Shown here one piece after another: positions 1 to 45,035 of a stretch of 64,000 bases of DNA. Every line of letters begins with the position of its first letter. The stretch's first letter is position 1. The DNA lies in NCBI GenBank assembly GCA_018304615.1, contig JAGVVV010000008.1:25741-89740 (forward strand). Reading direction: 5' to 3'. The DNA is from Candidatus Aenigmatarchaeota archaeon. GTDB lineage: Archaea; Aenigmatarchaeota; Aenigmatarchaeia; CG10238-14; SCSR01. The translations under genes and the position numbers were made by a program. The notes under the pieces are model-generated. The model saw only the letters and a list, made by a program, of their open reading frames with translations, searched no databases and was not told where the DNA came from.

Positions 1-779
1 TTTGTTAATTTTAATTATACAGGAAAATTTAAAGGAACTGTTCAAGAACAGGCAGCACTCAGAGAGGAAGGATTAGCAAATGGTTTCATCGGTTTAACGG
101 AGAATGATATAAAATTTTGGAGAGCTTGGTATGATGAAAAAATAAATGATGCTGATGCAAGATTTGGAACCTTCATAAATGAACTAAAAAAATTGAGACT
201 TCTTGATAAAACGATAATAATAGTCTCTTCAGATCATGGGACAGAACTCTATGAACATAAGAGATTTGATCATGGGCATACATTGTATCAGGAATTAATT
301 CACGTTCCGCTAATAATTTGGGCTCCAAAATTCAATGGAATAAAACAGTCACAAAGATAGTTTCAACTTTGGATATAATGCCCACTGTACTACAGTTAGT
401 CAACATTCAACCAAATGAAACTGTAAAAGATCAGATGGGAGGAATTAGTTTAATTCCGGCGATGAAAGGAAAGGATATTGGAAGAGACGTCTATTCAGAA
501 ACTGATTATAGGCTTTATACACACAAACGAGCAATAATAACAACCGACGGCTGGAAATTTATTTTAACTTTAGCTGAGGCACCAGATAAAAAAAACGTCA
601 AAGAATTATATAATTTAAATTCAGATCCAAAAGAAACGAACAATTTGATAGATTCAGAATTAAGGATGGCATACGAATTGGAACAGAAACTTCTCAAACA
701 TCTTAAAGATATGGGAACTAACGTTGATGATCCGTGGATTATTGGATGTTCAACAGTTTACAATGAACAGTGCAAATAA
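1..779 (+). pseudogene. sulfatase-like (alkaline-phosphatase superfamily) paralog, 3' part only, reading frame disrupted; 5' end outside window
   Basis: Frame 1 (1-345: ..IIVSSDHGTELYEH..HGHTLYQELIHVPL) and frame 3 (318-779: ..STLDIMPT..DGWKFILTLAEAPDKKNVKELYNL..) are together colinear with the last ~255 aa of the 9129-10553 paralog; frames switch at ggaATaaaacagtc (~326-331); in-frame tag at 343-345 in the upstream frame; ~70% nt identity to 9780-10553 including an identical 32-mer. Confidence 0.6.
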
Positions 780-2264
780 TTAAGGATATGGAAAAATTTT
801 TACAACTTCTATATCCGTTCTATTAAAAATTGCTATTCCTTTTTCTTTAATCCATTCAAACAGATTTGTTTTCAACCTGTCTGCCACATCAATCCTATCG
901 AAATACAAGTTCTTTTGTTCTTTTGGATCTTGTTTTATGTTGTATAGTTCGAACTCTGGAACGAATATTTTTTGTCCACTTATATACCCCCACCAAGAAT
1001 TATTCATTTCAAAATCTCTACTTGTTCTATAGATAAGTTTCCATTCGCTTGTTCTAACTCCAAAATCAATATGTGGTAAGAAAGTTGTATTTGTCTTTGC
1101 AAATTCTTCCCACAGAGGACTCCTTTCTATAAAAATATATTTATTGAATTGAGGGTCTTCATTATAAATGAGGGGAACTAAACTATTGCCTTCTGCTTTT
1201 TCATATTGTGGTATTTTCAAAAAATCAAGGATTGTGGGTAAAATATCTATACTTTGTGTTTGAGTGTAAATTATTTTATGTTCCAATCCTGGATGCTTTA
1301 TTATTAGTGGAACATGAATCTCAGATTCATGAATGTCATAATGCATTATATATTTGTGTTCTCCAAGTTCTTCGCCATGAGAAGAAGTAAAAATTATAAT
1401 GGTGTTCTTCTCTAATCCAGCACTTTTCAAGATGTTGAAAAAATTACCAAGAAAATTATCCATATGTTCTATACCAGCATCGTATTTAGCTACAATAAAA
1501 TCTATGTCATCTTGGTTCAATTGAACAGGATTTTCAGAAACATTCCTCTCAAGCCATTCTCCTCTTTCATAAAGAGGATAGTATGTATAGTTATATATTG
1601 AATTGATTTCAACTAAATTGATAACCTTGTTTTTGAAAAGCCCTCTGTATTGTAGATTTTCATATTTATTTTGTATTTCTTCAGGAACATATTTTCCATA
1701 AGGTGCATGCACTGTTCCAATTGCTAACCATAAAAAGAATTTTTTATTTTTCATAACAGATATTAACTGTTCATCAATTACTGGCAAATCTCTAACATAC
1801 GAAAAATTGGAAATATGATAACCGTTTCCAAAATCTCTGAAAACTTTGAATTCTGGGGAAGTTGAAATGGCGATGGTAGTATAGTTATAAGATTTTAATA
1901 TCTCCGCGATTGTTACTGGAGGATTAGTCAATTTATACTCATTATCAGATGGCCATGGAATGATTAAACCATGTTGGTGAGGATATAAAGAGGTATGTAA
2001 AGAAAATTCGGAGACTGGTGTCAGATAGGATTGAGTAATATAGTTTTTGAACAAAATGCTTTCTGAAGCGAACCTATCTATGTTTGGTGTCGTGTTTTTT
2101 TCATATCCATATACTCCAACATGATCTGCTCGCAAACTATCTATCGAAATTAAAATAACATTACAATCTTTACAAACATAGTTGGGATTAATCTGCTGAA
2201 AATAAAAAATTAGAATTATGGAAAATATTACGAATAAAAGAAATACGATTATTTTCATTCCCAT
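780..2264 (-). CDS. sulfatase-like hydrolase/transferase (alkaline phosphatase superfamily), N-terminal TM anchor
   Basis: 494 aa; TM helix then CKDCNVILISIDSLRADH sulfatase N-terminal motif; SSHGEELGEHKY..HVPLIIKHPG metal-binding region; the canonical C/S-x-P-x-R formylglycine motif is replaced by T-P-V-S (Thr). Confidence 0.8.
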   Translation of the reverse strand: MGMKIIVFLLFVIFSIILIFYFQQINPNYVCKDCNVILISIDSLRADHVGVYGYEKNTTPNIDRFASESILFKNYITQSYLTPVSEFSLHTSLYPHQHGLIIPWPSDNEYKLTNPPVTIAEILKSYNYTTIAISTSPEFKVFRDFGNGYHISNFSYVRDLPVIDEQLISVMKNKKFFLWLAIGTVHAPYGKYVPEEIQNKYENLQYRGLFKNKVINLVEINSIYNYTYYPLYERGEWLERNVSENPVQLNQDDIDFIVAKYDAGIEHMDNFLGNFFNILKSAGLEKNTIIIFTSSHGEELGEHKYIMHYDIHESEIHVPLIIKHPGLEHKIIYTQTQSIDILPTILDFLKIPQYEKAEGNSLVPLIYNEDPQFNKYIFIERSPLWEEFAKTNTTFLPHIDFGVRTSEWKLIYRTSRDFEMNNSWWGYISGQKIFVPEFELYNIKQDPKEQKNLYFDRIDVADRLKTNLFEWIKEKGIAIFNRTDIEVVKIFPYP

Positions 2265-2289
2265 AATTTTTACCTTAATATATTTTATT

Positions 2290-3588
2290 TCAAATTACAA
2301 CTGCAGTTCCACCAGCATGCCAACTAACTCTTGGCCTAATATTAACTGTGAATATTTTTTCCAGATTGTCGTCAAGAATCATCGCGGCCCCAGGCCATCT
2401 AGGAAGAGAGTTGATGTATTTCCACATGTCCTCCATTAGATATGTCTGCATTACTGCGTTGAGAGCCATCAAATCAGCTTTAGAAGTGAGTCTATGAGTG
2501 ATAACTAAATCTGTCTGACTAAGAATATCCTGATGGATTTTGTTGGGCATCTGTGTTATCATAACCAAACTCACTCCAGGCTCTCTTCCTTCCTTTGCTA
2601 TGGTAAGAAACGGTCCTGATGAAACTGTTTCCCTATCTGATGGTGCCCAGTTGTGTGCTTCGTCTGCAATTAGCCAGACTATAGGATATTTTTTCTTCAT
2701 GACAGTGCCTTCCATTTTCGCCAGCTCCTCCTCTTTTCTAGCAACAACTCTGAACTGATAAATTTTTCTTGCGATAAGAGCAACAAGGAAGTTTCTTACT
2801 GACCACGCTCCAGAGCTTCTTAATCTGGATAAATCTACTACAGTTATCTGGCCTGGTTGGACTAAATCATCTATATTAACTCCTTCAGTTCCGAAAACAC
2901 CCCATTGATTAGCTACTGTGAGCATGTTTTCTAATGCATCCTTAACTTCAGGAGCAGTCTCTCTATCATCCCTGATTTTCGAAATTAAATCTGGAATCAT
3001 AAAATGTTGACCTGATTCAATTAATGAATTGACATTTTTCTCTAATGCAATTGAGACTGCATTCGTCCTCTCAAGATTGAAAGCCAGTCCCCATTCATCA
3101 CCTGTGAACTCCCAAGGCAAGACTGAAATTCCTGCATCAACTGGCAAACCAGATTCTTTGTACTCCTCCAATTGCTTGAAAGGAACAAGAACTTTTATAT
3201 TTTCAAACCCTTTCGGTTCCAAATCCCAATCCTTAAGAAGTTCGGCTTGTTGGTCATTAGGCCTCTTCATGCTCCAAAAAATTCCCATCGTGTCAATTAT
3301 GACCACAGAAATATTGTTCCTATATTCTTCAGGCAACATGGCAATTTCTTCTGCGATAACTCCGCCAACATAAGATTTACCAGTTCCTCTTTTCCCGGAA
3401 ACAAGGATGATGTGCGGCCTCAACAGATCAAGAAGAACTTTTGTCGTGATGTGAGCATCTTCGCCAGTTCCGACAATGTGTTTGCCGATGTATCCAACAC
3501 CCTTGTCCTGGAATTTTTGCGCATCTTCCTTAATCCTTCCGACAATTGTGTATGTCTTAACCGTCTGGTCTAGAGTTGGCATATACAT
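2290..3588 (-). CDS. P-loop ATPase of the HerA/FtsK superfamily (DUF87-like)
   Basis: 432 aa; Walker A GKRGTGKSY, Walker B VWLIADEAHNW; no HAS-barrel or nuclease partner nearby. Confidence 0.65.
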   Translation of the reverse strand: MYMPTLDQTVKTYTIVGRIKEDAQKFQDKGVGYIGKHIVGTGEDAHITTKVLLDLLRPHIILVSGKRGTGKSYVGGVIAEEIAMLPEEYRNNISVVIIDTMGIFWSMKRPNDQQAELLKDWDLEPKGFENIKVLVPFKQLEEYKESGLPVDAGISVLPWEFTGDEWGLAFNLERTNAVSIALEKNVNSLIESGQHFMIPDLISKIRDDRETAPEVKDALENMLTVANQWGVFGTEGVNIDDLVQPGQITVVDLSRLRSSGAWSVRNFLVALIARKIYQFRVVARKEEELAKMEGTVMKKKYPIVWLIADEAHNWAPSDRETVSSGPFLTIAKEGREPGVSLVMITQMPNKIHQDILSQTDLVITHRLTSKADLMALNAVMQTYLMEDMWKYINSLPRWPGAAMILDDNLEKIFTVNIRPRVSWHAGGTAVVI

Positions 3589-3621
3589 TAATTTCGTATT
3601 CTATTCATTTATTATTTGAAG

Positions 3622-3696
3622 GGGGAAGTCATCTAGCTTGGTCTAGGATTTATCCTTGGGGTGGATAACACCTGGGTTCAAATCCCAGCTTCCCCA
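3622..3696 (+). tRNA. tRNA-Pro (anticodon GGG)
   Basis: Acceptor GGGGAAG/CTTCCCC, D-stem ATCT/GGAT, anticodon stem TATCC/GGATA with loop TTGGGGT, T-arm CTGGG-TTCAAAT-CCCAG, discriminator A; folded by hand. Confidence 0.75.
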
Positions 3697-3705
3697 TCAT
3701 GCTAA

Positions 3706-5076
3706 CTAAATGTAGCCGAGCTCGCGCAGTCTAGGAAGTACGGAATTATTGAATTTGCTTTGATTGACGAACCCACCATAAATCAAACGCGACTTTGAGG
3801 AGTTGGAAAGAAAGGAATCTATAACAACTAACAGTTTTTCGAAATTTGACGAGTCTGAAATGTTTTTTAACTCGAATGGATCCAAGTTCAAATAATATAA
3901 TTCAGTGGATGAAGTCGTGGAATCCTTTATTATTTTTTTGGAATTCTGAATTACGGAAGTTTTAGAATTCAATTCGGATATTACGAAGTCTCGTTGTTGT
4001 GAGAAAAGAGGCTGACCTTGAAATTGGGAGGGAATTTGTATGTTTAAAAGTTGTAAAATTGTAGGAGCAATGTCCACTCCAGAAGCTATTTGATTAATCA
4101 CTTGACCTCTTGAATTCGGGATTAACACAATCAGAGGGACCCGAATTTCTTCATTGTAAAGATCTAATCCATGGCCAACCCTATAATGCTCACCGAATGC
4201 TTCCCCATGGTCACCAGTAATAATAATGACAGTTTTGTCAAGAAGATGTTTCCGCTGCAAAAATTCATAATCTTGCCTGAGCACAAAGTCGATAAAATTT
4301 ACAGACCCATCGTATATTGCAATTGCATCTTGAAGCTGGGTTTGAGAAAGATTCAGTTCATTCAAGTCGTCGCTGGAAAGATTCCAATTAGTTAAATCGT
4401 TAATAGAGATATTAAGTTTGTTTAATAAAACGGTAGAAATGCCAAGAGATTCAGCATTTGTATTGTTGGGTTTGTACAAGTAGTAATAATCGGCAGGCAA
4501 AAGCCATCTGCTATGGGGTTCGGAATAGTGAAGGAAAAGAAAGAATCTTTTGTCTTTATTTTGATCAATCCATTTAAATGCAAACTGATTGACACTCTCA
4601 GAGTTTCTCTTTGAGATGTTTGATAGGGCATCTTCATTGTAAACGTCAAATCCTCTATTGTATCCATAATAGGAACTCAAATAAGGCAATGTGACCACAG
4701 CAGCTGTTTGATAACCGTTTTGCTTTAAAATTTGAGGAAATGTTACGGCGTTGCTGCTCAATGTAAAGTCGAAATTGTCCTTTCCCACCAAATGCGTGGA
4801 GGGGTAAAGAGAGGTAAAAATGGAGATATGGGAAGGAAGGGTGTATGATGAAGTGGAATATGAATGTTTGAAAATGAAAGACTGATTGGAGATTTCATTT
4901 AAGAAAGGAGTCGTAGCTCTATTATAACCATACAAATTCATATGATTTGACCCTAGAGTGTCAACAGAAATTAAAATTACATTGCAGTCCTTGCAAAATG
5001 GCTTGCTTGAACTACTGAAAAATACGAATATCGAAATGGTCAGTAAAATCAAAAAGACAATGAGAAAAGATTTCAT
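3706..5076 (-). CDS. sulfatase-like hydrolase/transferase paralog, TM-anchored
   Basis: 456 aa; FCKDCNVILISVDTLGSNH; TLPSH in place of CxPxR; GDHGEAFGEH..HGLD. Confidence 0.8.
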   Translation of the reverse strand: MKSFLIVFLILLTISIFVFFSSSSKPFCKDCNVILISVDTLGSNHMNLYGYNRATTPFLNEISNQSFIFKHSYSTSSYTLPSHISIFTSLYPSTHLVGKDNFDFTLSSNAVTFPQILKQNGYQTAAVVTLPYLSSYYGYNRGFDVYNEDALSNISKRNSESVNQFAFKWIDQNKDKRFFLFLHYSEPHSRWLLPADYYYLYKPNNTNAESLGISTVLLNKLNISINDLTNWNLSSDDLNELNLSQTQLQDAIAIYDGSVNFIDFVLRQDYEFLQRKHLLDKTVIIITGDHGEAFGEHYRVGHGLDLYNEEIRVPLIVLIPNSRGQVINQIASGVDIAPTILQLLNIQIPSQFQGQPLFSQQRDFVISELNSKTSVIQNSKKIIKDSTTSSTELYYLNLDPFELKNISDSSNFEKLLVVIDSFLSNSSKSRLIYGGFVNQSKFNNSVLPRLRELGYI

Positions 5077-5107
5077 AATAATATTTAACTAAACATAAAG
5101 ATATCAT

Positions 5108-6421
5108 ATGAAAAAGCTTTTACTGCCGCTGATAATTCTTGTCATCCTTGTCATGTTGTTTTTCAAATTGAGGGAACCAGAAGGGAAAAATGTGATTGTA
5201 ACTGGGACAGGAAATCCGGGAAAAATTCTCGTCTATAAGTTTGAAGGAGTAAATATTGTCCGTAAACAGATTGATACAGGTTACAAACTAGTTCATACGG
5301 TAAAAATAGGCAATGTGAGAAATGACGGGAACCAAGTAATTGTTGCTGGTGTTTCGAATAGTTTTTATGGGCCTCCTTTCGGATGTTCTGTCCTAATTTA
5401 TCACCCAGAGAAAAATTTTGAAAAGGAAGTGGTTGATGACGTGGTGGATTTGAGATGCAAGGATGTTTCAATAGGAGATGTCGACAACGATGGGAAAAAT
5501 GAGATTGTTTTAGGCACTCATGGTGAAGGAATAATAAACGTCTACAGGTGGGAAGGAAACAAATGGGTAAAACAGGAGATAGAAAGAAACTTCATCAAAC
5601 AGATTGACGAAAAAGGAAAAACAAATCACAGAGTTCCAATCGAGAAACTCACTTATGATGCAATCGATCAAACTGCAATTCATATTGTGAAAATTGGGGA
5701 CGCCACGAACAAGGGGAAGAATGGGATTATTGCCTCGGAATCCTCTCCATTGGAGTATACAGACGGACCTCAGATAAGTTATGTGAATATTTACGAATTT
5801 GACGGGAAAAATTGGAACAGGACAACTATTCATACAGGCAAAGGTTTTCAACATAGAAGTATCTTGGTTGGTGATTTTGATTATTCGGGTGGGAATGAGG
5901 TTTTGATTGGAGCGGCACCAAGCAGATTGTTCATGTTGAGATATGATGGAAATTGGTCTTCTACTCTGATCTTCAATCAGACGATTGACAAAAATATGAA
6001 AGGGCTTGATTTCCAGGACATCTATTCGAATGGAAAGAAAGTAATAGTCCTGGCTACAGGAATTCCAAACACTCTTATTTACACTTTGGAATGGGATGGG
6101 AGAGAATTTCAGAAAAAGTTGATTGGAAATGTATCTCAAGTTTCCGAAAATTATAATGTGATTAAAAACCTGAATTACAATGCCTTGGACGTCCAGGCAA
6201 GAGATATCGACAATGACGGGAAGCTTGAAATAATAGTGGCAGGAAAAGCCGATACAAGTGTGACTTTGGACAAATTGACTCCCGAAAACAACATCTTTGG
6301 CTGGGAAGCAACTCCTTATGGTTTTCTAGTCGTCTACAAATTTGACGGGAAGAATTGGAATCCTCTTGTTCTAGACACTTATTCAGTTCTTGGAATGGAT
6401 GTCGGAAACGTCAGATACTAA
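5108..6421 (+). CDS. FG-GAP / beta-propeller repeat protein, N-terminal TM anchor
   Basis: 437 aa; repeated GDVDNDGKNEIV / GDFDYSGGNEVLIG / RDIDNDGKLEIIVAG calcium-binding FG-GAP-like motifs. Confidence 0.65.
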   Translation: MKKLLLPLIILVILVMLFFKLREPEGKNVIVTGTGNPGKILVYKFEGVNIVRKQIDTGYKLVHTVKIGNVRNDGNQVIVAGVSNSFYGPPFGCSVLIYHPEKNFEKEVVDDVVDLRCKDVSIGDVDNDGKNEIVLGTHGEGIINVYRWEGNKWVKQEIERNFIKQIDEKGKTNHRVPIEKLTYDAIDQTAIHIVKIGDATNKGKNGIIASESSPLEYTDGPQISYVNIYEFDGKNWNRTTIHTGKGFQHRSILVGDFDYSGGNEVLIGAAPSRLFMLRYDGNWSSTLIFNQTIDKNMKGLDFQDIYSNGKKVIVLATGIPNTLIYTLEWDGREFQKKLIGNVSQVSENYNVIKNLNYNALDVQARDIDNDGKLEIIVAGKADTSVTLDKLTPENNIFGWEATPYGFLVVYKFDGKNWNPLVLDTYSVLGMDVGNVRY

Positions 6422-6423
6422 CG

Positions 6424-6437
6424 CTTAAATAATATTA
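6424..6437 (+). promoter_or_regulatory. BRE/TATA-like promoter element (cTTAAATAATATta) 26 nt upstream of the tRNA-Pro fragment
   Basis: Near-identical to the element upstream of the intact tRNA-Pro(TGG) (8956-8974). Confidence 0.45.
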
Positions 6438-6456
6438 ATTAGGAAGTTCTTGTCGA

Positions 6457-6519
6457 GGGGGAGTGGTATAGCTCACTTTGGTCTAGAATGGTCTAGCATT
6501 CCAGCCTTGGGAGTTGGAG
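6457..6519 (+). pseudogene. truncated tRNA-Pro(TGG) copy: 5' part (positions 1-48) with a 15-nt insertion in the D-loop; T-arm and 3' acceptor absent
   Basis: Identical to 8994-9041 of the intact tRNA-Pro(TGG) through acceptor, D-stem, and anticodon arm (CCAGC-CTTGGGA-GTTGG) except inserted CACTTTGGTCTAGAA (contains a duplicate of TGGTCTAG); homology ends 6 nt before the stop codon of the converging 6526-7467 gene. Confidence 0.7.
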
Positions 6520-6525
6520 CCTAGT

Positions 6526-7467
6526 TCAACTCAGAAGTTCATAATCCCATTTCCATTCGGTGTTGTTTTTAGCTGTCCAAACTTTTAATTTGACTAAATC
6601 CCCTTTCTTAACTTTGAGGGCTTCCTTAACTGGAAGGATAAACGATTTCCATTCAGGATTATTGTCAAGGGAATTAATTTGAATTGTGTCGGTAAGATAA
6701 ATTTTGAAATATGCGCAAAAGCAGTTCAAATAACCATTTTTGGTTATTTTGAAAGTTTTTTCCACGAAGATGATTTTAGGAAGCGAATAAAAATTCAATG
6801 AATAAACTAATTTATCGTTGCTTAAAAACTCTGTTCTATTAGTTATTTGGATGGGATATGTCTTCTCTGACAGTTTCCTATGAAACGGCGAAAAATCGAT
6901 ACCGTATCTTTTCTGCCAGAAAAAATCGAATTCGTTTGATTCAGCCGGTGAAAACATAATTTCTATTTTTTTAGGTATCATTTTTCCATCATTTTTAAGA
7001 AATTTTCTAGCAAAGCGCATTTTGTCAATAATGCCTTCGTCGACAACACTTCCTCCTATAAGTTCCGATATGATGCAATCCACTTTGGGAATTTTTATAC
7101 GATTCAAATTTGCGCGAATAAAAGTTATATTGTTAAAATTGTTTTTGGTTGCTATCTCTTGAGCCAAATGGATGATTTTTGAATAATCGACAGCATAAAT
7201 TTTTTTAGCGCCCATATTTGCTGCGAAAAATGCAAGAATACCAGTGCCGGTTCCTACATCCAAAACAGTATCATATTTTCTTACAGTTTTCATGATAGCT
7301 TTTTTGAATTTATGAACGCGAGTTTTGTCCGAAAGCATACGTCTGTGCCCTTTCAAATTCTGGAAAGAATATTGTAGAAGGGTTTCCCTGACAAAATGTA
7401 AAGAATATAATTTTAGGAGTATATCCTTCACAATTAATTCAAATTTACCGCTGAAGCCATATGACAC
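6526..7467 (-). CDS. protein arginine N-methyltransferase (PRMT)-like class I SAM-dependent methyltransferase
   Basis: 313 aa; motif I VLDVGTGTGILAFFAA, post-I KIYAVDYS, motif II/double-E loop VDCIISELIGGSVVDEG, motif III FLKNDGKMIP, C-terminal TEWKW resembling the THW loop. Confidence 0.6.
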   Translation of the reverse strand: MSYGFSGKFELIVKDILLKLYSLHFVRETLLQYSFQNLKGHRRMLSDKTRVHKFKKAIMKTVRKYDTVLDVGTGTGILAFFAANMGAKKIYAVDYSKIIHLAQEIATKNNFNNITFIRANLNRIKIPKVDCIISELIGGSVVDEGIIDKMRFARKFLKNDGKMIPKKIEIMFSPAESNEFDFFWQKRYGIDFSPFHRKLSEKTYPIQITNRTEFLSNDKLVYSLNFYSLPKIIFVEKTFKITKNGYLNCFCAYFKIYLTDTIQINSLDNNPEWKSFILPVKEALKVKKGDLVKLKVWTAKNNTEWKWDYELLS

Positions 7468-7493
7468 TAAATAAACATTAAAGTCATTTGTTT

Positions 7494-7512
7494 TAATCTT
7501 TAAATAATATCA
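7494..7512 (+). promoter_or_regulatory. exact 19-nt copy of the tRNA-Pro(TGG) promoter element (taatcTTTAAATAatatca) ~80 nt upstream of a sulfatase-like gene
   Basis: Identical 19-mer at 8956-8974; contains TTTAAATA TATA box. Confidence 0.45.
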
Positions 7513-7590
7513 CAGTCTATATCGCTAATTTTTCTAGTTGGGAATATCCATTACTAATAAATGATAAGATAGGAAAAAGAAGTAATTTAT

Positions 7591-8940
7591 ATGAAATTGA
7601 AAATTATTATCAGAACAATTATTGTGATTTTCAGTTTATTGATATCTATACTTTTTCTAAAGTCAAGTAATGAAACCCATGATGCAGAATGTAAAAATTG
7701 CAGTGTCATTTTGTTCACTGTAGATGTTTTGAGAGTAGAAAATCTAGGTATTTATGAATATCCAAGAAACACAAGTCCGAATATTGATTCGTTTTTTAAA
7801 CAAGGTTTTATTTTTTATAATGCATTCTCTACTTCGTCCCATACTTTGCCAAGCCATGTTTCTATTTTTACCGGCAACTATCCTTCAACACACAAAATAA
7901 TGCCACGAGCTAATATGACACTTCCACATGATCAAAAAACAATCGCCGAAATTTTCAAGGTCTACGGATATCAAACACAAAGTTTCCATGGTGACGACTC
8001 TTTGGATACTAAAGGAGCTGGATTTGAAAGAGGATTTGACAATGTTTATAATCAGAGTGATAATAAACCAAAGATTTTCGATTTTCTTAAATCAGTTAAA
8101 GGTAAATTTTTCTTATCAATATACACAGAAAAATTGCACGATCCTTATTTGTCAAACATTACCTACGAAAATATGTTTGATAAAGATTATAATGGAAGTA
8201 TAATTGGTGATTATGATAAATTTGTACAATTAAAAAAAGAAAATAACATTACAGATGATTTTACACAAGAAAGGCTATTGTTTTGGAGTAAAGTGAACAA
8301 ATCAGATACCAAGGATGTAAAACACTTAATTGCACTTTATGATTCAAATATATATCAAATTGATTTGTTCTTTGGGGAACTCATTAAATATTTAGATGAT
8401 AGAGGGTTTTTGAATGATACAATTATTATACTTACATCTGATCATGGAGAACAGTTTAATGAACATGGAGATTTTCTGCATACGAAACTATATGATGAAA
8501 TTATTCATGTTCCTCTTCTAATTTATGTTCCTAAAACTAAACAGACTGTAATAAAAAATCAAGTCAGCCTTGTAGATTTGAGTCCAACAATTCTATCACT
8601 CGTTGGAATCGTACCTCCTCAAAATATTGATGGTAGGAGTTTAAAGTTCCTAATGGGTAATCCGAATGTAGAGGACAAAAATCAGGTTATATATTCTGAA
8701 TTTGCCTTCCAAAGAGCGATAAGGACTCCAGAATGGAAATTTATCAAAACGGTGAACGGGACAGTGTCATATGAGTTTTTTGATTTAAGAAACGATCCTA
8801 AGGAATTAATTAATTTATATGGGAAAAATGTCAATGAAGAAAGTTTATTTAAACAAGCTTTAGAAGGTTGGGAAGTTAAAATGAACAGTAGTTATGTTAA
8901 TGTTAAATTTCTAAATTCCACGTTTATCGGCTATCCTTGA
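7591..8940 (+). CDS. sulfatase-like hydrolase/transferase paralog, TM-anchored
   Basis: 449 aa; ECKNCSVILFTVDVLR; TLPSH; SDHGEQFNEHGDFLHT. Confidence 0.8.
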   Translation: MKLKIIIRTIIVIFSLLISILFLKSSNETHDAECKNCSVILFTVDVLRVENLGIYEYPRNTSPNIDSFFKQGFIFYNAFSTSSHTLPSHVSIFTGNYPSTHKIMPRANMTLPHDQKTIAEIFKVYGYQTQSFHGDDSLDTKGAGFERGFDNVYNQSDNKPKIFDFLKSVKGKFFLSIYTEKLHDPYLSNITYENMFDKDYNGSIIGDYDKFVQLKKENNITDDFTQERLLFWSKVNKSDTKDVKHLIALYDSNIYQIDLFFGELIKYLDDRGFLNDTIIILTSDHGEQFNEHGDFLHTKLYDEIIHVPLLIYVPKTKQTVIKNQVSLVDLSPTILSLVGIVPPQNIDGRSLKFLMGNPNVEDKNQVIYSEFAFQRAIRTPEWKFIKTVNGTVSYEFFDLRNDPKELINLYGKNVNEESLFKQALEGWEVKMNSSYVNVKFLNSTFIGYP

Positions 8941-8955
8941 ATAATTCAAAGATAA

Positions 8956-8974
8956 TAATCTTTAAATAATATCA
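8956..8974 (+). promoter_or_regulatory. tRNA-Pro(TGG) promoter (BRE/TATA TTTAAATA centred ~-27)
   Basis: Position relative to tRNA start at 8994; archaeal TATA consensus. Confidence 0.5.
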
Positions 8975-8993
8975 TTTAGCAAGTTCATCAGAT

Positions 8994-9068
8994 GGGGGAG
9001 TGGTATAGCTTGGTCTAGCATTCCAGCCTTGGGAGTTGGAGACCCGTGTTCAAATCACGGCTCCCCCA
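8994..9068 (+). tRNA. tRNA-Pro (anticodon TGG)
   Basis: Acceptor GGGGGAG/CTCCCCC, anticodon arm CCAGC-CTTGGGA-GTTGG (anticodon TGG), T-arm CCGTG-TTCAAAT-CACGG, discriminator A. Confidence 0.8.
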
Positions 9069-9128
9069 CATTTAAAAAACTGATTCATGAAGATAGCAAA
9101 GATTAAAATTGAAGAAATTAAATAATAC

Positions 9129-10553
9129 TTGATGCGAAATACTAACTTGATTATCGGATTTATCGCACTTGCAATTTTACTTGTTCTTTTGTACATGAAC
9201 TTGCCGCAGGGATATTCATGCCCTGATTGCAATGTGATAATAATTGCTTTTGACGCAGTGCAGACATCACATGTGAGTGCCTATGGGTATCCTTTACAAA
9301 CAACTCCTAACCTGAATAATTTCGCAAAAGGCGGAACATTATTCACGAATGCAATCAGTCCTGCATCTTGGACTGTTCCGACGTATATGTCTTGGTTCAC
9401 TTCCATGTATCCGTCGGAACATAAAGTGGTGAATAGATACTCTGAATATGAACCTCCGAATGTCACAATTTTAGCGAACCTAAGAAATCTGACACCTTCA
9501 GCAGTCACTCTTGCAGAAATAATGAAACAAAATGGCTTTAGTACTGTAGCCTTCACAGGAGATGCGGGAGCTCGCGGTGCTTCAGGTGATAATATAGGGT
9601 TTGATGTCTATGTAGATACTCCCATTGGGTTTAACGGTTTTGACCTCAGTGTTCCTATGGCACTCAGTTGGATCAGGAACAACACGGACAAAAAATTCTT
9701 CATGTTCCTCCACGGGTATGATTCGCATGGGCAGTACATGCCTAAAAACTTCACGAAAAAATATGATCTCAATTACACTGGAAGATTCAACGGAACAGTT
9801 GTGGAGCAAGCAGCACTCAGGGAAGAAGGATTGGCAAAGGGTTATGTTAACGTCACGGATGATGAAATTAAATTCTGGAGAGCATGGTATGATGAAAAGA
9901 TAAACGATGCAGATGCACGATTTAGAATTTTCATAAACGGACTAAATGAAATGGGATTGATGGACAAGACTATCATCATAGTCGCGTCGGACCATGGAAC
10001 AGAATTTTTTGAACATGGGAGAGTAGACCATGGGCATACATTGTATCAGGAATTAATTCATGTGCCTCTGGTTGTTAGAATTCCGAATTATTCTAACGGC
10101 AAAACTGTCACTAGTCAGGTTTCGACTTTGGACATAATGCCAACTATTTTTCAGATAGCAGGCATTCAGGTAAATGATACTGTTAAAACCCAGATAAAAG
10201 GATTCAGTTTGCTTGATGCCATGAAGGGCAAGGATGTTAGCAGAGACGTATACTCAGAGACAGATTACAGGCTGTTTACCCACAAAAGAGCTATCGTCAC
10301 GAAAGACGGTTGGAAATTTATTCTTACTTTGGCAGAAGCTCCGGATAAGAAAAATGTAAAAGAGTTGTATAATTTGAAAACTGATCCTATGGAAACAACT
10401 AACCTGATTAACTCTGAGCCGCAGACGGCATATGAGCTTGAACAAAAACTATTGAGCCATCTCAAAGAGATGGGAACTAATATTGATGGACCTTGGGTAA
10501 TCGGCTGCTCAGCTGTTTATGTTGACCAATGCAAATATTACGCACATGGATAA
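9129..10553 (+). CDS. sulfatase-like hydrolase/transferase paralog, TM-anchored
   Basis: 474 aa; SCPDCNVIIIAFDAVQTSH; TVPTY; SDHGTEFFEHGRVDHGHT; ATG at 9132 may be the true start. Confidence 0.8.
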   Translation: MMRNTNLIIGFIALAILLVLLYMNLPQGYSCPDCNVIIIAFDAVQTSHVSAYGYPLQTTPNLNNFAKGGTLFTNAISPASWTVPTYMSWFTSMYPSEHKVVNRYSEYEPPNVTILANLRNLTPSAVTLAEIMKQNGFSTVAFTGDAGARGASGDNIGFDVYVDTPIGFNGFDLSVPMALSWIRNNTDKKFFMFLHGYDSHGQYMPKNFTKKYDLNYTGRFNGTVVEQAALREEGLAKGYVNVTDDEIKFWRAWYDEKINDADARFRIFINGLNEMGLMDKTIIIVASDHGTEFFEHGRVDHGHTLYQELIHVPLVVRIPNYSNGKTVTSQVSTLDIMPTIFQIAGIQVNDTVKTQIKGFSLLDAMKGKDVSRDVYSETDYRLFTHKRAIVTKDGWKFILTLAEAPDKKNVKELYNLKTDPMETTNLINSEPQTAYELEQKLLSHLKEMGTNIDGPWVIGCSAVYVDQCKYYAHG

Positions 10554-10878
10554 CAAAGATGAAGCAGTGATGAGGAAAAGGCAGACGAAACCTGAATGGC
10601 AGTCTAGAATAGCCAGAGAGAGGATAGAGATTCTTTTCAATTTGGCAAAAAAAGAATTCAAAAAACATCCTGACAGGTCAAAAAGATATGTTGAACTTGC
10701 AAGAAGGATAGGTCAAAGGTACAATGTGAGATTTCCTAGGGAGACGAAGAGAAGCTTCTGCAAGAACTGCAATTCTATCCTGATTCCTGGGGTGTCTTCA
10801 AAAGTCAGGTTGAAAAAAGGAACAGTCTTTATTAATTGCCTGAAATGTAATAAAATTTATAGGTATCCATACTCATGA
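10546..10878 (+). CDS. rnp4: RNase P protein component 4 (Rpp21/Rpr2 zinc ribbon)
   Basis: CKNCNSILIPG..CLKCNKIYRYPY zinc-ribbon; start at ATG 10546 overlapping the upstream stop by 8 nt (alternative ATG 10570). Confidence 0.75.
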   Translation: MDNKDEAVMRKRQTKPEWQSRIARERIEILFNLAKKEFKKHPDRSKRYVELARRIGQRYNVRFPRETKRSFCKNCNSILIPGVSSKVRLKKGTVFINCLKCNKIYRYPYS

Positions 10879-14022: not shown

Positions 14023-15507
14023 TTAAGAGATTTTCTTCTCTAAAAACTCAAACAGCTTGTCTATTTTGACTCTCGCTTGCTTTGTAGTGTCTCTGTCTCT
14101 TACTGTGACGGTCTTGTCCTTCAATGTATCGTAATCCACAGTTATCGCCAACGGAGTACCGATTTCGTCTGCTCTAGCGTACCTTTTTCCTATGCTTCCA
14201 GCCTCGTCATACTCACATACAAATTCTTTCTTTAACAGTTCGAAAACTTCTTTGGCATTTTCTGATAAACCATCTTTTTTCATCAATGGGAAGATGGCGA
14301 CTTTGACTGGGGAAATCGAAGAGTCGAGTTTGAGTTTTACCTTGACTTCGTCATCCTCTTTCTCTTCACTGTAAGAATCCAGCAGAATAGTCATTATAGT
14401 TCTTTCTAGACCGAAGGAAGGTTCTATGACGCATGGTATTACTTTTTCCTTTGTTTCCTCGTCAAAATAATTCAAATCTGTTTTGCTGAATTTCATGTGT
14501 TGTTTCAAATCGAAATCTGTCCTGTTTGCGATTCCTTCGAGTTCTTTCCATCCCCAGGGGAAGTTGTATTCCACGTCCCAAGTTTCAGAAGAATAGTGTG
14601 AGAGTTCGGTTTTCAAGTGCTCCCTGATTCTCAGGTTCTCTTTTTTAATTCCGATGTTTTCAAACCATTTCATCGATTCGACAACCCAGAAGGCATGCCA
14701 AGGGGTTTTGATTATCTTTTCGCTCAACAAGTCTTTAATTTTCATCTTCTGGTGGGATTTTTTCTTCTCTTGATTAGCAGAAGTCAAGACATTCAATTCA
14801 TATTTCAAATGTTCGTTTGTCAAGAATTCGCACTTGTCGATTTTTTTCGGATGGATGAAATATTCGATCTCCATTTGGCTGAATTCCCTTGTTCTGAATA
14901 CGAAATTCCTCGGTGAAATCTCATTTCTGAACGCTTTTCCCATCTGAGCGATACCGAATGGAAGTTTCTTTCTGGAAGAGTGCTGGATGATTTTGAAATT
15001 CGTGAAAATGACCTGGGCAGTCTCTGGCCGAAGATAGGCGACATTCCCGGATTCAGCTCCGACAGAAGTCTTGAACATCAGGTTGAACGGTTGCAAAAAT
15101 TTCAATTCTCCCTTGTCATCAGGACACTTTATCTTGTGTTTTTCTATCAGTTCTTTCAGATGGTCTACAGACAATCCATCAACAGAAATCTTGAGTTCCA
15201 TCTCGACAAGATGATCAGCCCTGTATTTTTTCTTGCATTTAGTGCATCCGACCAGCGGGTCGTTGAAAGATTCCAAATGACCGCTAGCTTTCCACACCTC
15301 AGGATGAGTGATTATTGCTCCGTCGATTCCAACCATGTCGTCCCTGTCATTTACAAAGTGCTTCCACCATGAATTCTCTACATTTCTCTTCAGCTCAGAA
15401 CCATAGTTTCCATAGTCGAAAAATCCGGCGAATGTACCATAGATTTCAGAATTCGGAAACAAGATACCTCTTCTTTTACAAAGCGAAATTATCTTTTCTA
15501 CATCCAT
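14023..15507 (-). CDS. glyS: glycyl-tRNA synthetase (archaeal/eukaryotic type)
   Basis: 494 aa; class II motifs. Confidence 0.85.
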   Translation of the reverse strand: MDVEKIISLCKRRGILFPNSEIYGTFAGFFDYGNYGSELKRNVENSWWKHFVNDRDDMVGIDGAIITHPEVWKASGHLESFNDPLVGCTKCKKKYRADHLVEMELKISVDGLSVDHLKELIEKHKIKCPDDKGELKFLQPFNLMFKTSVGAESGNVAYLRPETAQVIFTNFKIIQHSSRKKLPFGIAQMGKAFRNEISPRNFVFRTREFSQMEIEYFIHPKKIDKCEFLTNEHLKYELNVLTSANQEKKKSHQKMKIKDLLSEKIIKTPWHAFWVVESMKWFENIGIKKENLRIREHLKTELSHYSSETWDVEYNFPWGWKELEGIANRTDFDLKQHMKFSKTDLNYFDEETKEKVIPCVIEPSFGLERTIMTILLDSYSEEKEDDEVKVKLKLDSSISPVKVAIFPLMKKDGLSENAKEVFELLKKEFVCEYDEAGSIGKRYARADEIGTPLAITVDYDTLKDKTVTVRDRDTTKQARVKIDKLFEFLEKKIS

Positions 15508-19490: not shown

Positions 19491-20432
19491 ATGAAAGAAA
19501 TATTAACCAATTTAGAAGATGTATCAGGTAAATTCAAAAGTGTACATATAGATAATGGCTTTGTGTTCATAAAAGTCGGAAAGTATACGGCAAAAATCAA
19601 AATTCCTTTTAGAGTTAGCAAAGAACTTGCATCTTTATATGGACATGTTTTAGGCGATGGCCATATTAAAAAAGATGAACAACACTTTCACTATGTAAAC
19701 AAAAATAAGGATTTAATTGAAGAAGTCAAATCAGAAGTCAAAAATATATTTGCCGTTGAGACCATGGAGTATTTTAGAGAAAACAAACAAATCTATGATT
19801 TGAATTTCCCGGTAGTAATTGCAAAACTGCTTGTTTTATTAGGGTTTCCAAAAGGTAGAAAATCAATTCAAATATTGTCAATTCCAGAATGGTTGAAAAA
19901 TGAATCTGTAGATATCAAAGCGGCTTTTATCAGAGCTTTATTTGATGATGAAGCGTGGGTAGAAATAAAACAGGGTGGATTTTGTATCGGCTTTGGCCAA
20001 AACAAAAATGTCAACTTATTGCAATATCACAAAAATTACATTGAAGAAATTAGGAATATTTTGAGTCAATTAGGTGTCAATTCAAGTAAAATTTTTCAAA
20101 AATCGCAAAAAGGAGATTCTATACAACTTGGTTTTAAAATTTTAGGATTACAAAATCTTACTAATTTTAATTCAAAAATAGGATTTCTCTCTGAAAATAA
20201 ACAAAAAAGATTAGAATTCGTCTTGAACAATTTTAAACAGATACAGTTCGGTAAAAAAGAAGCGAAGTTAAAAATATTGGAAAAATTAAACGTACCTATG
20301 AAAAGTAAAGAATTGGCATTTTTGCTTAATAGGGATCAAAAAACTATTTGGAAACATTTACATCAACTGCATAGAAAAAATTTAGTCACTAAAATCGGTA
20401 CTAAAAATAAAGTATTTTGGAAAAGTGTCTAA
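19491..20432 (+). CDS. free-standing double-motif LAGLIDADG homing-endonuclease-family protein with C-terminal wHTH-like tail
   Basis: 313 aa; motif 1 LASLYGHVLGDGHI, motif 2 FIRALFDDEAWVE; very AT-rich coding region; located between rnp2 and psmA. Confidence 0.7.
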   Translation: MKEILTNLEDVSGKFKSVHIDNGFVFIKVGKYTAKIKIPFRVSKELASLYGHVLGDGHIKKDEQHFHYVNKNKDLIEEVKSEVKNIFAVETMEYFRENKQIYDLNFPVVIAKLLVLLGFPKGRKSIQILSIPEWLKNESVDIKAAFIRALFDDEAWVEIKQGGFCIGFGQNKNVNLLQYHKNYIEEIRNILSQLGVNSSKIFQKSQKGDSIQLGFKILGLQNLTNFNSKIGFLSENKQKRLEFVLNNFKQIQFGKKEAKLKILEKLNVPMKSKELAFLLNRDQKTIWKHLHQLHRKNLVTKIGTKNKVFWKSV

Positions 20433-44727: not shown

Positions 44728-44931
44728 TTAGGACTTTGCAAACCAGTGCGGTTGACCGGCGAGAAGCTTTGATTTAACTTTTTTCTGTTTTTCCAGCTCT
44801 GCAAGTTTCTGCTTAGCTTTGCTTTCCTCCAAATCAAAAACGCGGGAAATTTCCTTGATGACATCTTTTATTTTCAGCCCAAGTTTTTCGAATAATTTTC
44901 TCCATTCCCCATCATTTTTGTTAGATAGCAT
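44728..44931 (-). CDS. small hypothetical protein
   Basis: 67 aa K/E-rich; start abuts tRNA 3' end. Confidence 0.3.
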   Translation of the reverse strand: MLSNKNDGEWRKLFEKLGLKIKDVIKEISRVFDLEESKAKQKLAELEKQKKVKSKLLAGQPHWFAKS

Positions 44932-45035
44932 GCCCCTGCAGGGATTTGAACCCTGGACCTCCTGCTTAGAAGGCAGTTGCTCTATCCAAACTGAGCTTTC
45001 CTCGTATTACTACAAGGGCATTAGCCATCAGGGGC
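44931..45035 (-). tRNA. tRNA-Arg (TCT) with a ~30-nt intron at a non-canonical position between acceptor stem and D-stem
   Basis: Acceptor GCCCCTG/CAGGGGC, D-arm GCTC-AGTTTGGATA-GAGC, anticodon loop CTTCTAA, T-arm CAGGG-TTCAAAT-CCCTG, discriminator A; 32 nt (ATGGCTAATGCCCTTGTAGTAATACGAGGAAA) lie where 2 nt are expected. Confidence 0.6.

Follow-up and report, generated by a model that had tools for sequence, protein, structure and literature searches.

Flexible regions and hot spots beside tRNA genes are known from bacteria and haloarchaea, as replacement or additive islands with envelope and glycan genes, where variable content of lower GC lies between conserved flanks. In SSV- and pNOB8-type insertions, a partial and an intact tRNA gene in direct repeat bracket a few kilobases; integrases that target tRNA genes normally leave the 3′ part of the tRNA as the attachment (att) site. 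Here, we analysed a window of 64,000 nucleotides from a Candidatus Aenigmatarchaeota archaeon (GenBank assembly GCA_018304615.1, contig JAGVVV010000008.1, positions 25,741 to 89,740 of the forward strand). Its first 10,553 nucleotides carry five genes for sulfatase-fold enzymes (sulfA′ to sulfE), an FG-GAP protein gene and a PRMT-like methyltransferase gene, set around a HerA-like ATPase gene and two tRNA-Pro genes. This region is probably a recombination-prone stretch in which resident envelope-enzyme genes have been reshuffled and partly duplicated round a conserved backbone, with no mobile element involved.

The region shares with the known flexible regions its variable content between conserved flanks, its lower GC and its tRNA borders; its cargo encodes surface-exposed enzymes, and the neighbouring genes in relatives are glycan-related. 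Unlike them, it has no integrase or mobile genes, the same families recur reordered rather than as unrelated cassettes, and the tRNA genes are fixed landmarks, one of which has itself been duplicated and truncated. It also resembles the SSV- and pNOB8-type remnants in having a partial and an intact tRNA gene in direct repeat around a few kilobases. In contrast to those, the remnant is the 5′ part with its promoter, there is no integrase, and the flanks are 70% homologous, as after a segmental duplication. As genome architecture, this would be a new example of a known plasticity, in which a tiny symbiont reshuffles surface-enzyme genes round tRNA landmarks without mobile machinery. It is a clear and datable case, whose traces are a tRNA pseudogene, gene fragments and promoter copies that were captured.

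The source genome belongs to the Candidatus Aenigmatarchaeota (DPANN), and the S19e protein of the window matches those of Aenigmatarchaeota metagenome-assembled genomes (MAGs) at 64-71% identity. Gene features were taken from the list of open reading frames (ORFs), a Pfam scan, ARAGORN and Rfam, which together recovered, at the same coordinates, all the features named in a preliminary description of this DNA. Duplicated blocks were defined by blastn self-comparison and alignment. We surveyed related loci with S19e as anchor in genomes and the HerA-like ATPase in metagenomes, and mapped the window proteins and tRNAs on about 110 loci (L001 and so on), whose arrangements are given in window orientation. 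L001, a 27-kb metagenome contig, has 13.6 kb in common with the window (2 mismatches) and reaches 6.8 kb further left. All coordinates are relative to the window; zero or negative ones lie left of it and are taken from L001.

The self-comparison, which the preliminary description had called for, mapped four duplicated blocks and their boundaries. Block a (8860-10553 and -739 to 795, 70-72% identical) holds the 3′ end of sulfD, the promoter of tRNA-Pro(TGG), the tRNA and sulfE; in its left copy the tRNA and about 90 nt more are gone, and the promoter is fused to the start of sulfA′. Block b (2292-2485 and -957 to -764, 87%) is the 3′ end of the HerA gene, and the fragment lies between a sulfD 3′ fragment and a methyltransferase gene. 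Block c (6413-6533 and 8950-9057) comprises the promoter (6413-6456 versus 8950-8993, 31/44 identical) and the 5′ part of tRNA-Pro(TGG) (48/48). Block d (7494-7512 and 8956-8974, 19/19) is the promoter core alone, its flanks unrelated. Altogether, four copies of the tRNA-Pro(TGG) promoter remain as footprints of duplication. The blocks show at least two segmental duplications in this lineage, followed by deletions. Repeated duplication or recombination at tRNA-Pro loci had been proposed before: the scars at tRNA-Pro(TGG) bear this out, but the four intact paralogs were not made in this way.

The HerA fragment is nearest to the resident HerA gene (87% identity versus at most 78% for all of the 80+ other HerA genes sampled), and 19 of its 25 differences from that gene fall at third codon positions. 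Likewise, the differences between sulfA′ and sulfE amount to 0.39-0.53 at third versus 0.06-0.17 at first and second codon positions. This bias implies that both copies were long under purifying selection, for most of their separate history. Differences of this kind are also those expected between selected orthologs, and the second copy (the HerA 3′ and sulfD 3′ fragments, sulfA′ and perhaps sulfB) could have come from a related Aenigmatarchaeon, brought in at the backbone through homologous or illegitimate recombination. An import would explain why sulfA′ is equidistant from sulfE and from its ortholog in L029, and slightly nearer to the latter in a neighbour-joining (NJ) tree; related genomes carry different cargo at the same sites, as they would under cassette exchange. 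We nevertheless consider it unlikely: the HerA fragment is clearly nearest to the resident gene, both tRNA-Pro(TGG) copies have the same lineage-specific sequence, unlike those of L006, L028, L029 and L040, and no donor lineage was identified.

The truncated tRNA-Pro copy with its promoter, noticed in the preliminary description, was found at 6413-6533 (+). Behind the promoter copy, tRNA positions 1-48 (6457-6519) are identical to the intact gene at 48 of 48 positions, apart from a 15-nt insertion (6474-6488). Beyond these positions, similarity is weak and ends at about 6533; the T-arm has decayed and contains the stop codon of the PRMT gene, and the 3′ acceptor strand is lost. The promoter copy takes in the last codons of the FG-GAP gene, and in L028 and L040 tRNA-Pro(TGG) is found downstream of FG-GAP, directly so in L028, which is the place of the remnant in the window.

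The 15-nt insert of the remnant is a local slip duplication (TGGTCTAGAA/TGGTCTAGCA). It has no bulge-helix-bulge motif, and we rejected the remnant as an intron-containing tRNA gene. We likewise rejected it as the 5′ half of a split tRNA: there is no displaced 3′ half in the window, no Rfam match, and the fold is unstable (z = -0.83).

The tRNA promoter core, a B recognition element (BRE)/TATA-like 19-mer (TAATCTTTAAATAATATCA, +), is found at 8956-8974 and again, as an exact copy, at 7494-7512, 79 nt upstream of sulfD; that the 19-mer is copied in front of one paralog had been noted before. No other match occurs in the 64 kb even if up to 3 mismatches are allowed (0.06 matches expected; two matches in 0 of 100 shuffles), which led us to reject a generic promoter consensus, and the flanks of the 7494-7512 copy do not resemble those of the tRNA promoter. 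The contrast between the 48/48 tRNA part and the 31/44 promoter, together with the sharp edges of the 19-mer, suggests recent short-patch gene conversion from the intact locus.

The truncated and intact tRNA copies could also be read as attL and attR of one or more integrative elements inserted in tRNA-Pro(TGG), with PRMT and sulfD as cargo, and the preliminary description had raised the possibility of such elements. The PRMT-sulfD segment is bounded by direct repeats, the perfect 48-nt tRNA core contrasts with upstream flanks only 70% identical, and GC is lower over 1-10 kb (0.32-0.38) than downstream (about 0.39-0.44), a modest gap that is common in surface-protein genes too. Nevertheless, the repeated segment is the promoter with tRNA positions 1-48. 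It covers two-thirds of the tRNA from the 5′ end, whereas an att site normally comes from the 3′ part. No displaced 3′ copy of tRNA-Pro(TGG) was found in the window, where the only other match to the 3′ part is the T-arm of the intact tRNA-Pro(GGG). Neither an integrase, intact or split, nor a transposase was found: all ORFs of at least 130 aa are assigned to other families, the Pfam matches of L001-L005 include no integrase, and the genes fill the segment, leaving no room. Searches against PHROG gave matches only to non-diagnostic sulfatase-like or ATPase families, and one viral-contig scan with the PRMT protein gave nothing. Moreover, the promoter copies hold the last FG-GAP codons and were thus copied from the same type of locus, and orthologs of PRMT and sulfD are chromosomal neighbours of the same backbone in relatives. 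With recombinase, viral signal and 3′ att repeat all missing, we hold integrative elements to be very improbable here.

We propose the following history for a reshuffling of resident DNA. One duplication probably carried the unit of sulfD 3′ end, tRNA-Pro(TGG) promoter, tRNA and sulfE, and with it the 3′ end of HerA, across to the other side of the HerA gene; there the copy lost its tRNA, and its sulfE decayed to the pseudogene sulfA′. Another duplication probably affected the tRNA-Pro(TGG) locus. Its truncated copy stayed at the ancestral site after FG-GAP, and the intact copy lies 2.5 kb downstream, separated from it by PRMT and sulfD. In the remnant, the first 48 nt would be held identical to the intact locus by short-patch gene conversion, and so would the 19-mer. 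The underlying mechanism would be unequal or illegitimate recombination, possibly a tandem duplication of about 10 kb followed by reciprocal loss.

Under such a tandem model, an ancestor with the order HerA, tRNA-GGG, sulfC, FG-GAP, ..., sulfD, tRNA-TGG, sulfE, sulfB, rnp4 would have undergone the duplication of about 10 kb and then three deletions. The first copy would have lost everything from the HerA 3′ end to the sulfD 3′ end and, separately, its tRNA; the second would have lost sulfB, which would have brought the end of sulfE against rnp4. A ~10-kb tandem duplication with three deletions accounts for all junctions, but no better than does a smaller duplicative insertion at the HerA 3′ end.

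Several points weigh against the proposed history. The pseudogene sulfA′ is no closer to sulfE (72%) than to the L029 ortholog (71-74%), and the second copy may have been functional for a long time before it decayed, or may have come from a related genome. A 48/48 tRNA part beside a 31/44 promoter would also fit an att-like core. Finally, the closest available relatives, at only about 72-76% identity in HerA, are too distant for the rearrangements to be ordered or counted.

Next, we compared the locus with those of relatives. In the clade with at least 60% identity in HerA, a common gene order runs through FEN1, GlyRS, a SepF-like gene, UPF0147, prefoldin-beta, L37ae, a PDCD5-like gene and S19e, followed by a small transmembrane protein, rnp4, tRNA-Pro(TGG), tRNA-Pro(GGG) and, on the opposite strand, HerA. 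In the window, the backbone genes are the HerA/DUF87-like P-loop ATPase gene (2290-3588, -; PF01935 31.7 bits, cut-off 23.2), tRNA-Pro(GGG) (3622-3696, +) and the intact, intron-less tRNA-Pro(TGG) (8994-9069, +; promoter 8950-8993), both tRNAs being found by ARAGORN and Rfam, and rnp4 (10519-10878, +; RNase P Rpr2 subunit, PF04032, E=3e-20), the first gene of the rnp4-S19e block. As described earlier, the region thus lies directly upstream of this block.

The HerA orthologs of relatives (60-76% identity) adjoin tRNA-Pro and rnp4, and tRNA-Pro(GGG) keeps its place beside HerA. Over 21 related loci, the distance from rnp4 to HerA ranges from 277 bp to 5.6 kb, compared to 6.9 kb in the window; 11 of the 21 have a compact backbone (277-731 bp) with the tRNAs alone between. 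The rnp4/tRNA-Pro/HerA linkage is missing in 47 more distant loci (HerA at most 50% identical). As members of a backbone common to the clade, the HerA gene and the two tRNA-Pro genes serve as landmarks that stay fixed in the locus; they are not the island content for which they had first been taken. The HerA-like ATPase of the window is a distant relative of HerA and no equivalog, since it scores 46-53 bits with the NCBIfam HerA equivalog models against cut-offs of 800-970.

Some tRNA-Pro genes of the relatives were missed by ARAGORN because they contain one or two introns, and were found with Rfam and by eye. Some of these introns are at non-canonical positions (acceptor stem, D-arm); intron-bearing sites are L028 6360-6490 and 9770-9870, L032 8711-8802, L006 7991-8083 and L040 11-110, and both tRNA-Pro genes of the window are intron-less. 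In L008 (5740-8160, -), about 350 aa are inserted in frame into the P-loop of the HerA-like ATPase (GKRG|C...SHN|TGKS); the insert has intein hallmarks and a homing-endonuclease-like middle, and L049, L053 and L054 probably have the same. The longest rnp4 ORF overlaps sulfE by 35 nt, and since alignments to relatives begin only at residue 16-20, the true start is probably ATG 10546 (8-nt overlap with the sulfE stop) or ATG 10570. The GlyRS gene of the window (14023-15507, -) is 82% identical to the copies in L028 (194-1657) and L112 (10168-11628) and only 38-48% identical to those of other relatives with equally similar neighbour genes, which suggests two GlyRS types, or a replacement, inside the clade.

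Between the landmarks, the gene content varies. L028 has HerA, tRNA-GGG, a sulfC-like gene, FG-GAP (73%), tRNA-TGG and rnp4, which is the left half of the window order, and L029 has tRNA-TGG, a sulfE-like gene (72%), a sulfB-type gene, an MT249-like methyltransferase gene and rnp4. Two sulfatase-like genes and FG-GAP lie between the tRNAs in L040, and a radical SAM gene is found at the backbone site in L109. The backbone is compact in L107 and L108, where PRMT (62%), a sulfatase-like gene, FG-GAP (50%), UbiA and radical SAM genes are contiguous beyond HerA. Genes similar to sulfD (54-55%) and sulfE (71-77%) adjoin in L111, L112 and L113, and the pair in L112 is directly upstream of rnp4. Even the closest relatives (HerA 72-76%) carry other insertions at the same backbone sites.

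The PRMT-like methyltransferase gene lies at 6526-7467 (-; PrmA PF06325 and PRMT_C PF22528). Its product has the domain order of a PRMT, with a class I SAM-binding part (PF06325/PF13847, residues 57-141) ahead of the C-terminal beta-barrel (PF22528, residues 183-304; 32.5 bits, cut-off 27), and its orthologs (62-65%) lie on the far side of HerA in L107 and L109. The cargo thus consists of conserved sub-modules (sulfC-type with FG-GAP, sulfD with sulfE, sulfE with sulfB, and PRMT) that are arranged differently in each genome. The site varies, but cargo families are found in relatives at 30-77% identity, near the backbone or elsewhere. Since PRMT, FG-GAP and sulfatase-like genes occur near the backbone or in envelope clusters of relatives, in other orders, we read the cargo from these comparisons as reshuffled resident DNA and not as foreign import.

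This result agrees with the variable region of the preliminary description: gene order is not kept in the relatives, and a common order reaching to distant relatives, which would have spoken for an ancient fixed operon, was not found. Five independent metagenome assemblies (L001 and four covering parts) carry DNA of the region at >99.5% identity, and we rejected an assembly or sequencing artefact as the source of the frameshifts and junctions on the basis of these concordant assemblies. An ancient fixed operon-like cluster, or else an assembly chimera, is hardly credible for the region as a whole. Some pairs are conserved (sulfC-type with FG-GAP, sulfD with sulfE), and repeats could in principle mislead assemblers, but the overall order is different in every relative examined, the assemblies reproduce the junctions from different samples, and repeats at 70-87% identity are too diverged to collapse.

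Left of the window, L001 14545-20391 (about -6800 to -956) encodes two class I methyltransferases, a UbiA-family prenyltransferase, a multi-pass membrane protein, a GH127-like protein that is anchored in the membrane and has CGPPDDWDCG motifs in several repeats, and a radical SAM protein whose zinc ribbon is of HMPTM type. We take this last protein to have the architecture of the tetraether lipid synthase Tes/GDGT-MAS. Orthologs of these envelope genes are linked to HerA in L107 and L028, and for a DPANN genome, such a cluster of lipid or glycan genes is noteworthy.

The sulfatase-fold genes themselves comprise, as first described, four full paralogs and one disrupted one within 10.5 kb; no further paralogs were found elsewhere in the 64-kb window. 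The intact genes are sulfB (780-2264, -; PF00884 E=2.5e-45), which has a variant active site, sulfC (3706-5076, -; PF00884 E=1.6e-46), which forms a divergent pair with the FG-GAP gene, sulfD (7591-8940, +; PF00884), with Thr85 in T-L-P-S-H, and sulfE (9129/9132-10553, +; PF00884), whose end abuts or overlaps the rnp4 start. PF00884 E-values range from 1e-36 to 1e-46 over the four. Each sulfatase-like protein, like the FG-GAP protein, has a single hydrophobic segment, at the N-terminus, as transmembrane anchor.

Pairwise identity among the four intact paralogs is 30-34%, and every one of them is closer to orthologs of other genomes than to any paralog of the window. Orthologs reach 45% for sulfB (the best elsewhere), 53-55% for sulfC (in L041), 50-61% for sulfD (54-55% for those adjoining sulfE orthologs in L111, L112 and L113) and 71-77% for sulfE (in L029, L111, L112 and L113). 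A phylogeny of the paralogs had been suggested as a check on local amplification. The family has roughly 2,500 members among the sequences searched, and we built an NJ tree from a set of 132 (5 window paralogs, 7 genes of related loci and 120 best database homologs). The tree, like the best hits, places each paralog with orthologs elsewhere, and every clade that unites sulfC or sulfD with another window paralog comprises >100 sequences. The tree thus speaks against local amplification; sulfA′ and sulfE alone are as much as 72% identical, in protein and in DNA. That all paralogs were amplified recently at this site is rejected by these identities and the phylogeny. With identities of 30-34% and each grouping with its own orthologs elsewhere, the four intact paralogs are ancient, local repeated duplication did not create the family, and only sulfA′ and sulfE are to be regarded as a duplicate pair at the level of the lineage.

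The pseudogene sulfA′ (1-779, +), a copy of sulfE, starts about 610 bp left of the window, which has its 3′ two-thirds. On L001, a 14-nt deletion takes out its first beta-strand, and a 2-nt insertion near window position 340 shifts the frame. All five assemblies call it as identical pieces of 307 and 133 aa, so that the frameshift is not a read error. The active site of sulfB is T-P-V-S-E, with S-S-H-G in place of S-D-H-G, and an L029 gene with the sulfB-type variant T-P-[VI]-S-E is convergent to a sulfE ortholog. In L005 (JGI 3300025317), a 22-nt deletion at window 1510-1531 splits sulfB; it may represent a variant within the population, with a second paralog on its way to loss.

Among the closest known enzymes by fold are the formylglycine-dependent sulfatases (SulfAtlas family S1), whose catalytic Cys or Ser becomes formylglycine and for which the catalytic signature is [CS]-x-[PA]-x-R (PS00523 as updated, PMC5066984). 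An AlphaFold2 model of sulfD (pLDDT 91) finds as best PDB folds S1 sulfatases and phosphonate monoester hydrolases (5g2v, 7p24, 2vqr; Foldseek E ~1e-28, TM-score ~0.7, 17-23% identity); the window enzymes share with them the PF00884 and SGSH_C domains, the first metal-binding Asp and the D-H-G motif. They differ at the catalytic site: the formylglycine position (Cys/Ser) of sulfatase 7p24 aligns with Thr, and the signature Arg is replaced by His. At this signature the paralogs have T-L-P-S-H, T-V-P-T-Y or T-P-V-S-E. The full S1 catalytic pattern is found in 0 of the 5 paralogs and 0 of the 132 family members, and the second S1 signature G-Y-x-[TSCV]-x3-G-K, with the sulfate-binding Lys, in 0 of 132. 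In contrast, Thr occupies the nucleophile position in 129 of the 132, and 74 of the 132 have T-x-P-x-H.

The nucleophile motif of NPP phosphodiesterases is T-x-P-x-H...T-G-x-x-P-x-x-H, and sulfC and sulfD have T-L-P-S-H-x-S-I-F-T-[SG]-x-Y-P-S-T-H. The window enzymes resemble NPP/ENPP (PF01663) in this Thr motif, in being extracytoplasmic and in scoring above the PF01663 gathering threshold (37-52 bits, cut-off 23). Unlike NPP/ENPP, they fit the profile well in the N-terminal part only, the best stretches mostly covering just profile positions 1-66, and their C-terminal half and global fold are of sulfatase type. With LtaS, EptA and MCR (PF00884), they have in common the Thr nucleophile and an extracytoplasmic sulfatase-fold domain, with an envelope-modifying role that is here only inferred. 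Those enzymes have a multi-helix membrane domain, whereas the window proteins have one N-terminal helix, and no NCBIfam model reaches its cut-off for the paralogs (LtaS/EptA models 20-58 bits versus 500-1250).

Since the Thr nucleophile lies in an NPP-like motif and the S1 signatures are missing, the paralogs are most likely sulfatase-fold ectoenzymes with a Thr nucleophile, for which phosphate esters are the likelier substrate. They would act as surface phosphodiesterases or phosphotransferases held by one N-terminal helix. Two points weigh against this: both the substrate of the Thr-type enzymes and the role of the FG-GAP protein are our inference, and sulfB, without two conserved active-site residues, may be inactive or decaying. 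As the formylglycine motif is missing, the label "sulfatase" on these DPANN and candidate phyla radiation (CPR) proteins is probably chemically wrong, which would affect metabolic reconstructions that infer the use of sulfated glycans. The literature that we searched contained nothing directly relevant on Thr-nucleophile sulfatase-fold enzymes in archaea.

The FG-GAP gene (5108-6421, +) encodes a beta-propeller protein with an N-terminal membrane anchor (PF13517, PF15907, PF01839). Its homologs are confined to Aenigmatarchaeota (44-77%), other DPANN (34%) and CPR bacteria (37-42%, full-length). A sulfatase-like gene is directly beside the FG-GAP gene in 9 of 10 independent genomic contexts, and in most contexts compared this partner is closest, weakly, to sulfC. 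Among these contexts are those of three CPR bacteria (one a Patescibacteria MAG, one a complete Roizmanbacteria genome) and of a Woesearchaeote, in which the pair is divergent as in the window. The neighbours in relatives are glycan-related (glycosyltransferases, polysaccharide deacetylase, sugar epimerases, Wzy_C and a GH127-like protein) or lipid-related (UbiA and radical SAM enzymes), and the gene context of the pair points to an envelope-directed role.

The sulfC-type enzyme and the FG-GAP propeller would probably act on phospho-glycans or lipids of the envelope or of the host surface. More speculatively, and with little confidence, we suggest that enzyme and FG-GAP protein could form an uncharacterised surface module of episymbiotic DPANN and CPR, spread by inter-domain transfer and processing phosphoester-linked head groups. 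Such a module would recognise, cleave or transfer these head groups on lipids or glycans of the host's or its own envelope, and the four divergent paralogs at the tRNA-Pro hot spot, close to the lipid genes for UbiA and the Tes-like radical SAM protein, would give it a toolkit for diversification. Found in two domains, the pair is a candidate module for the cell-surface interaction of ultra-small episymbionts. Our literature search returned no account of sulfatase/FG-GAP modules in Aenigmatarchaeota, DPANN or CPR, and the probably mislabelled Thr-type "sulfatases" with their cross-domain FG-GAP partner are the most interesting lead of this analysis.

In two CPR bacteria (L114 1437-2708 and L115 3218-4498), the pair adjoins YcaO and nitroreductase-family genes, a combination typical of azoline-forming peptide modification.

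Two further observations concern other parts of the window. At 44930-45030 (-), a partial Rfam match to tRNA (44939-44997) was missed by ARAGORN; inspected by eye, it is a gene resembling tRNA-Arg(TCT) in which about 29 nt, probably a non-canonical intron, are inserted behind acceptor position 7. Finally, a 313-aa ORF at 19491-20432 (+), in the RNase P/ribosomal stretch, has an LGDGHI-type motif and a helix-turn-helix-like C-terminal tail and may be a free-standing LAGLIDADG homing-endonuclease-like gene.

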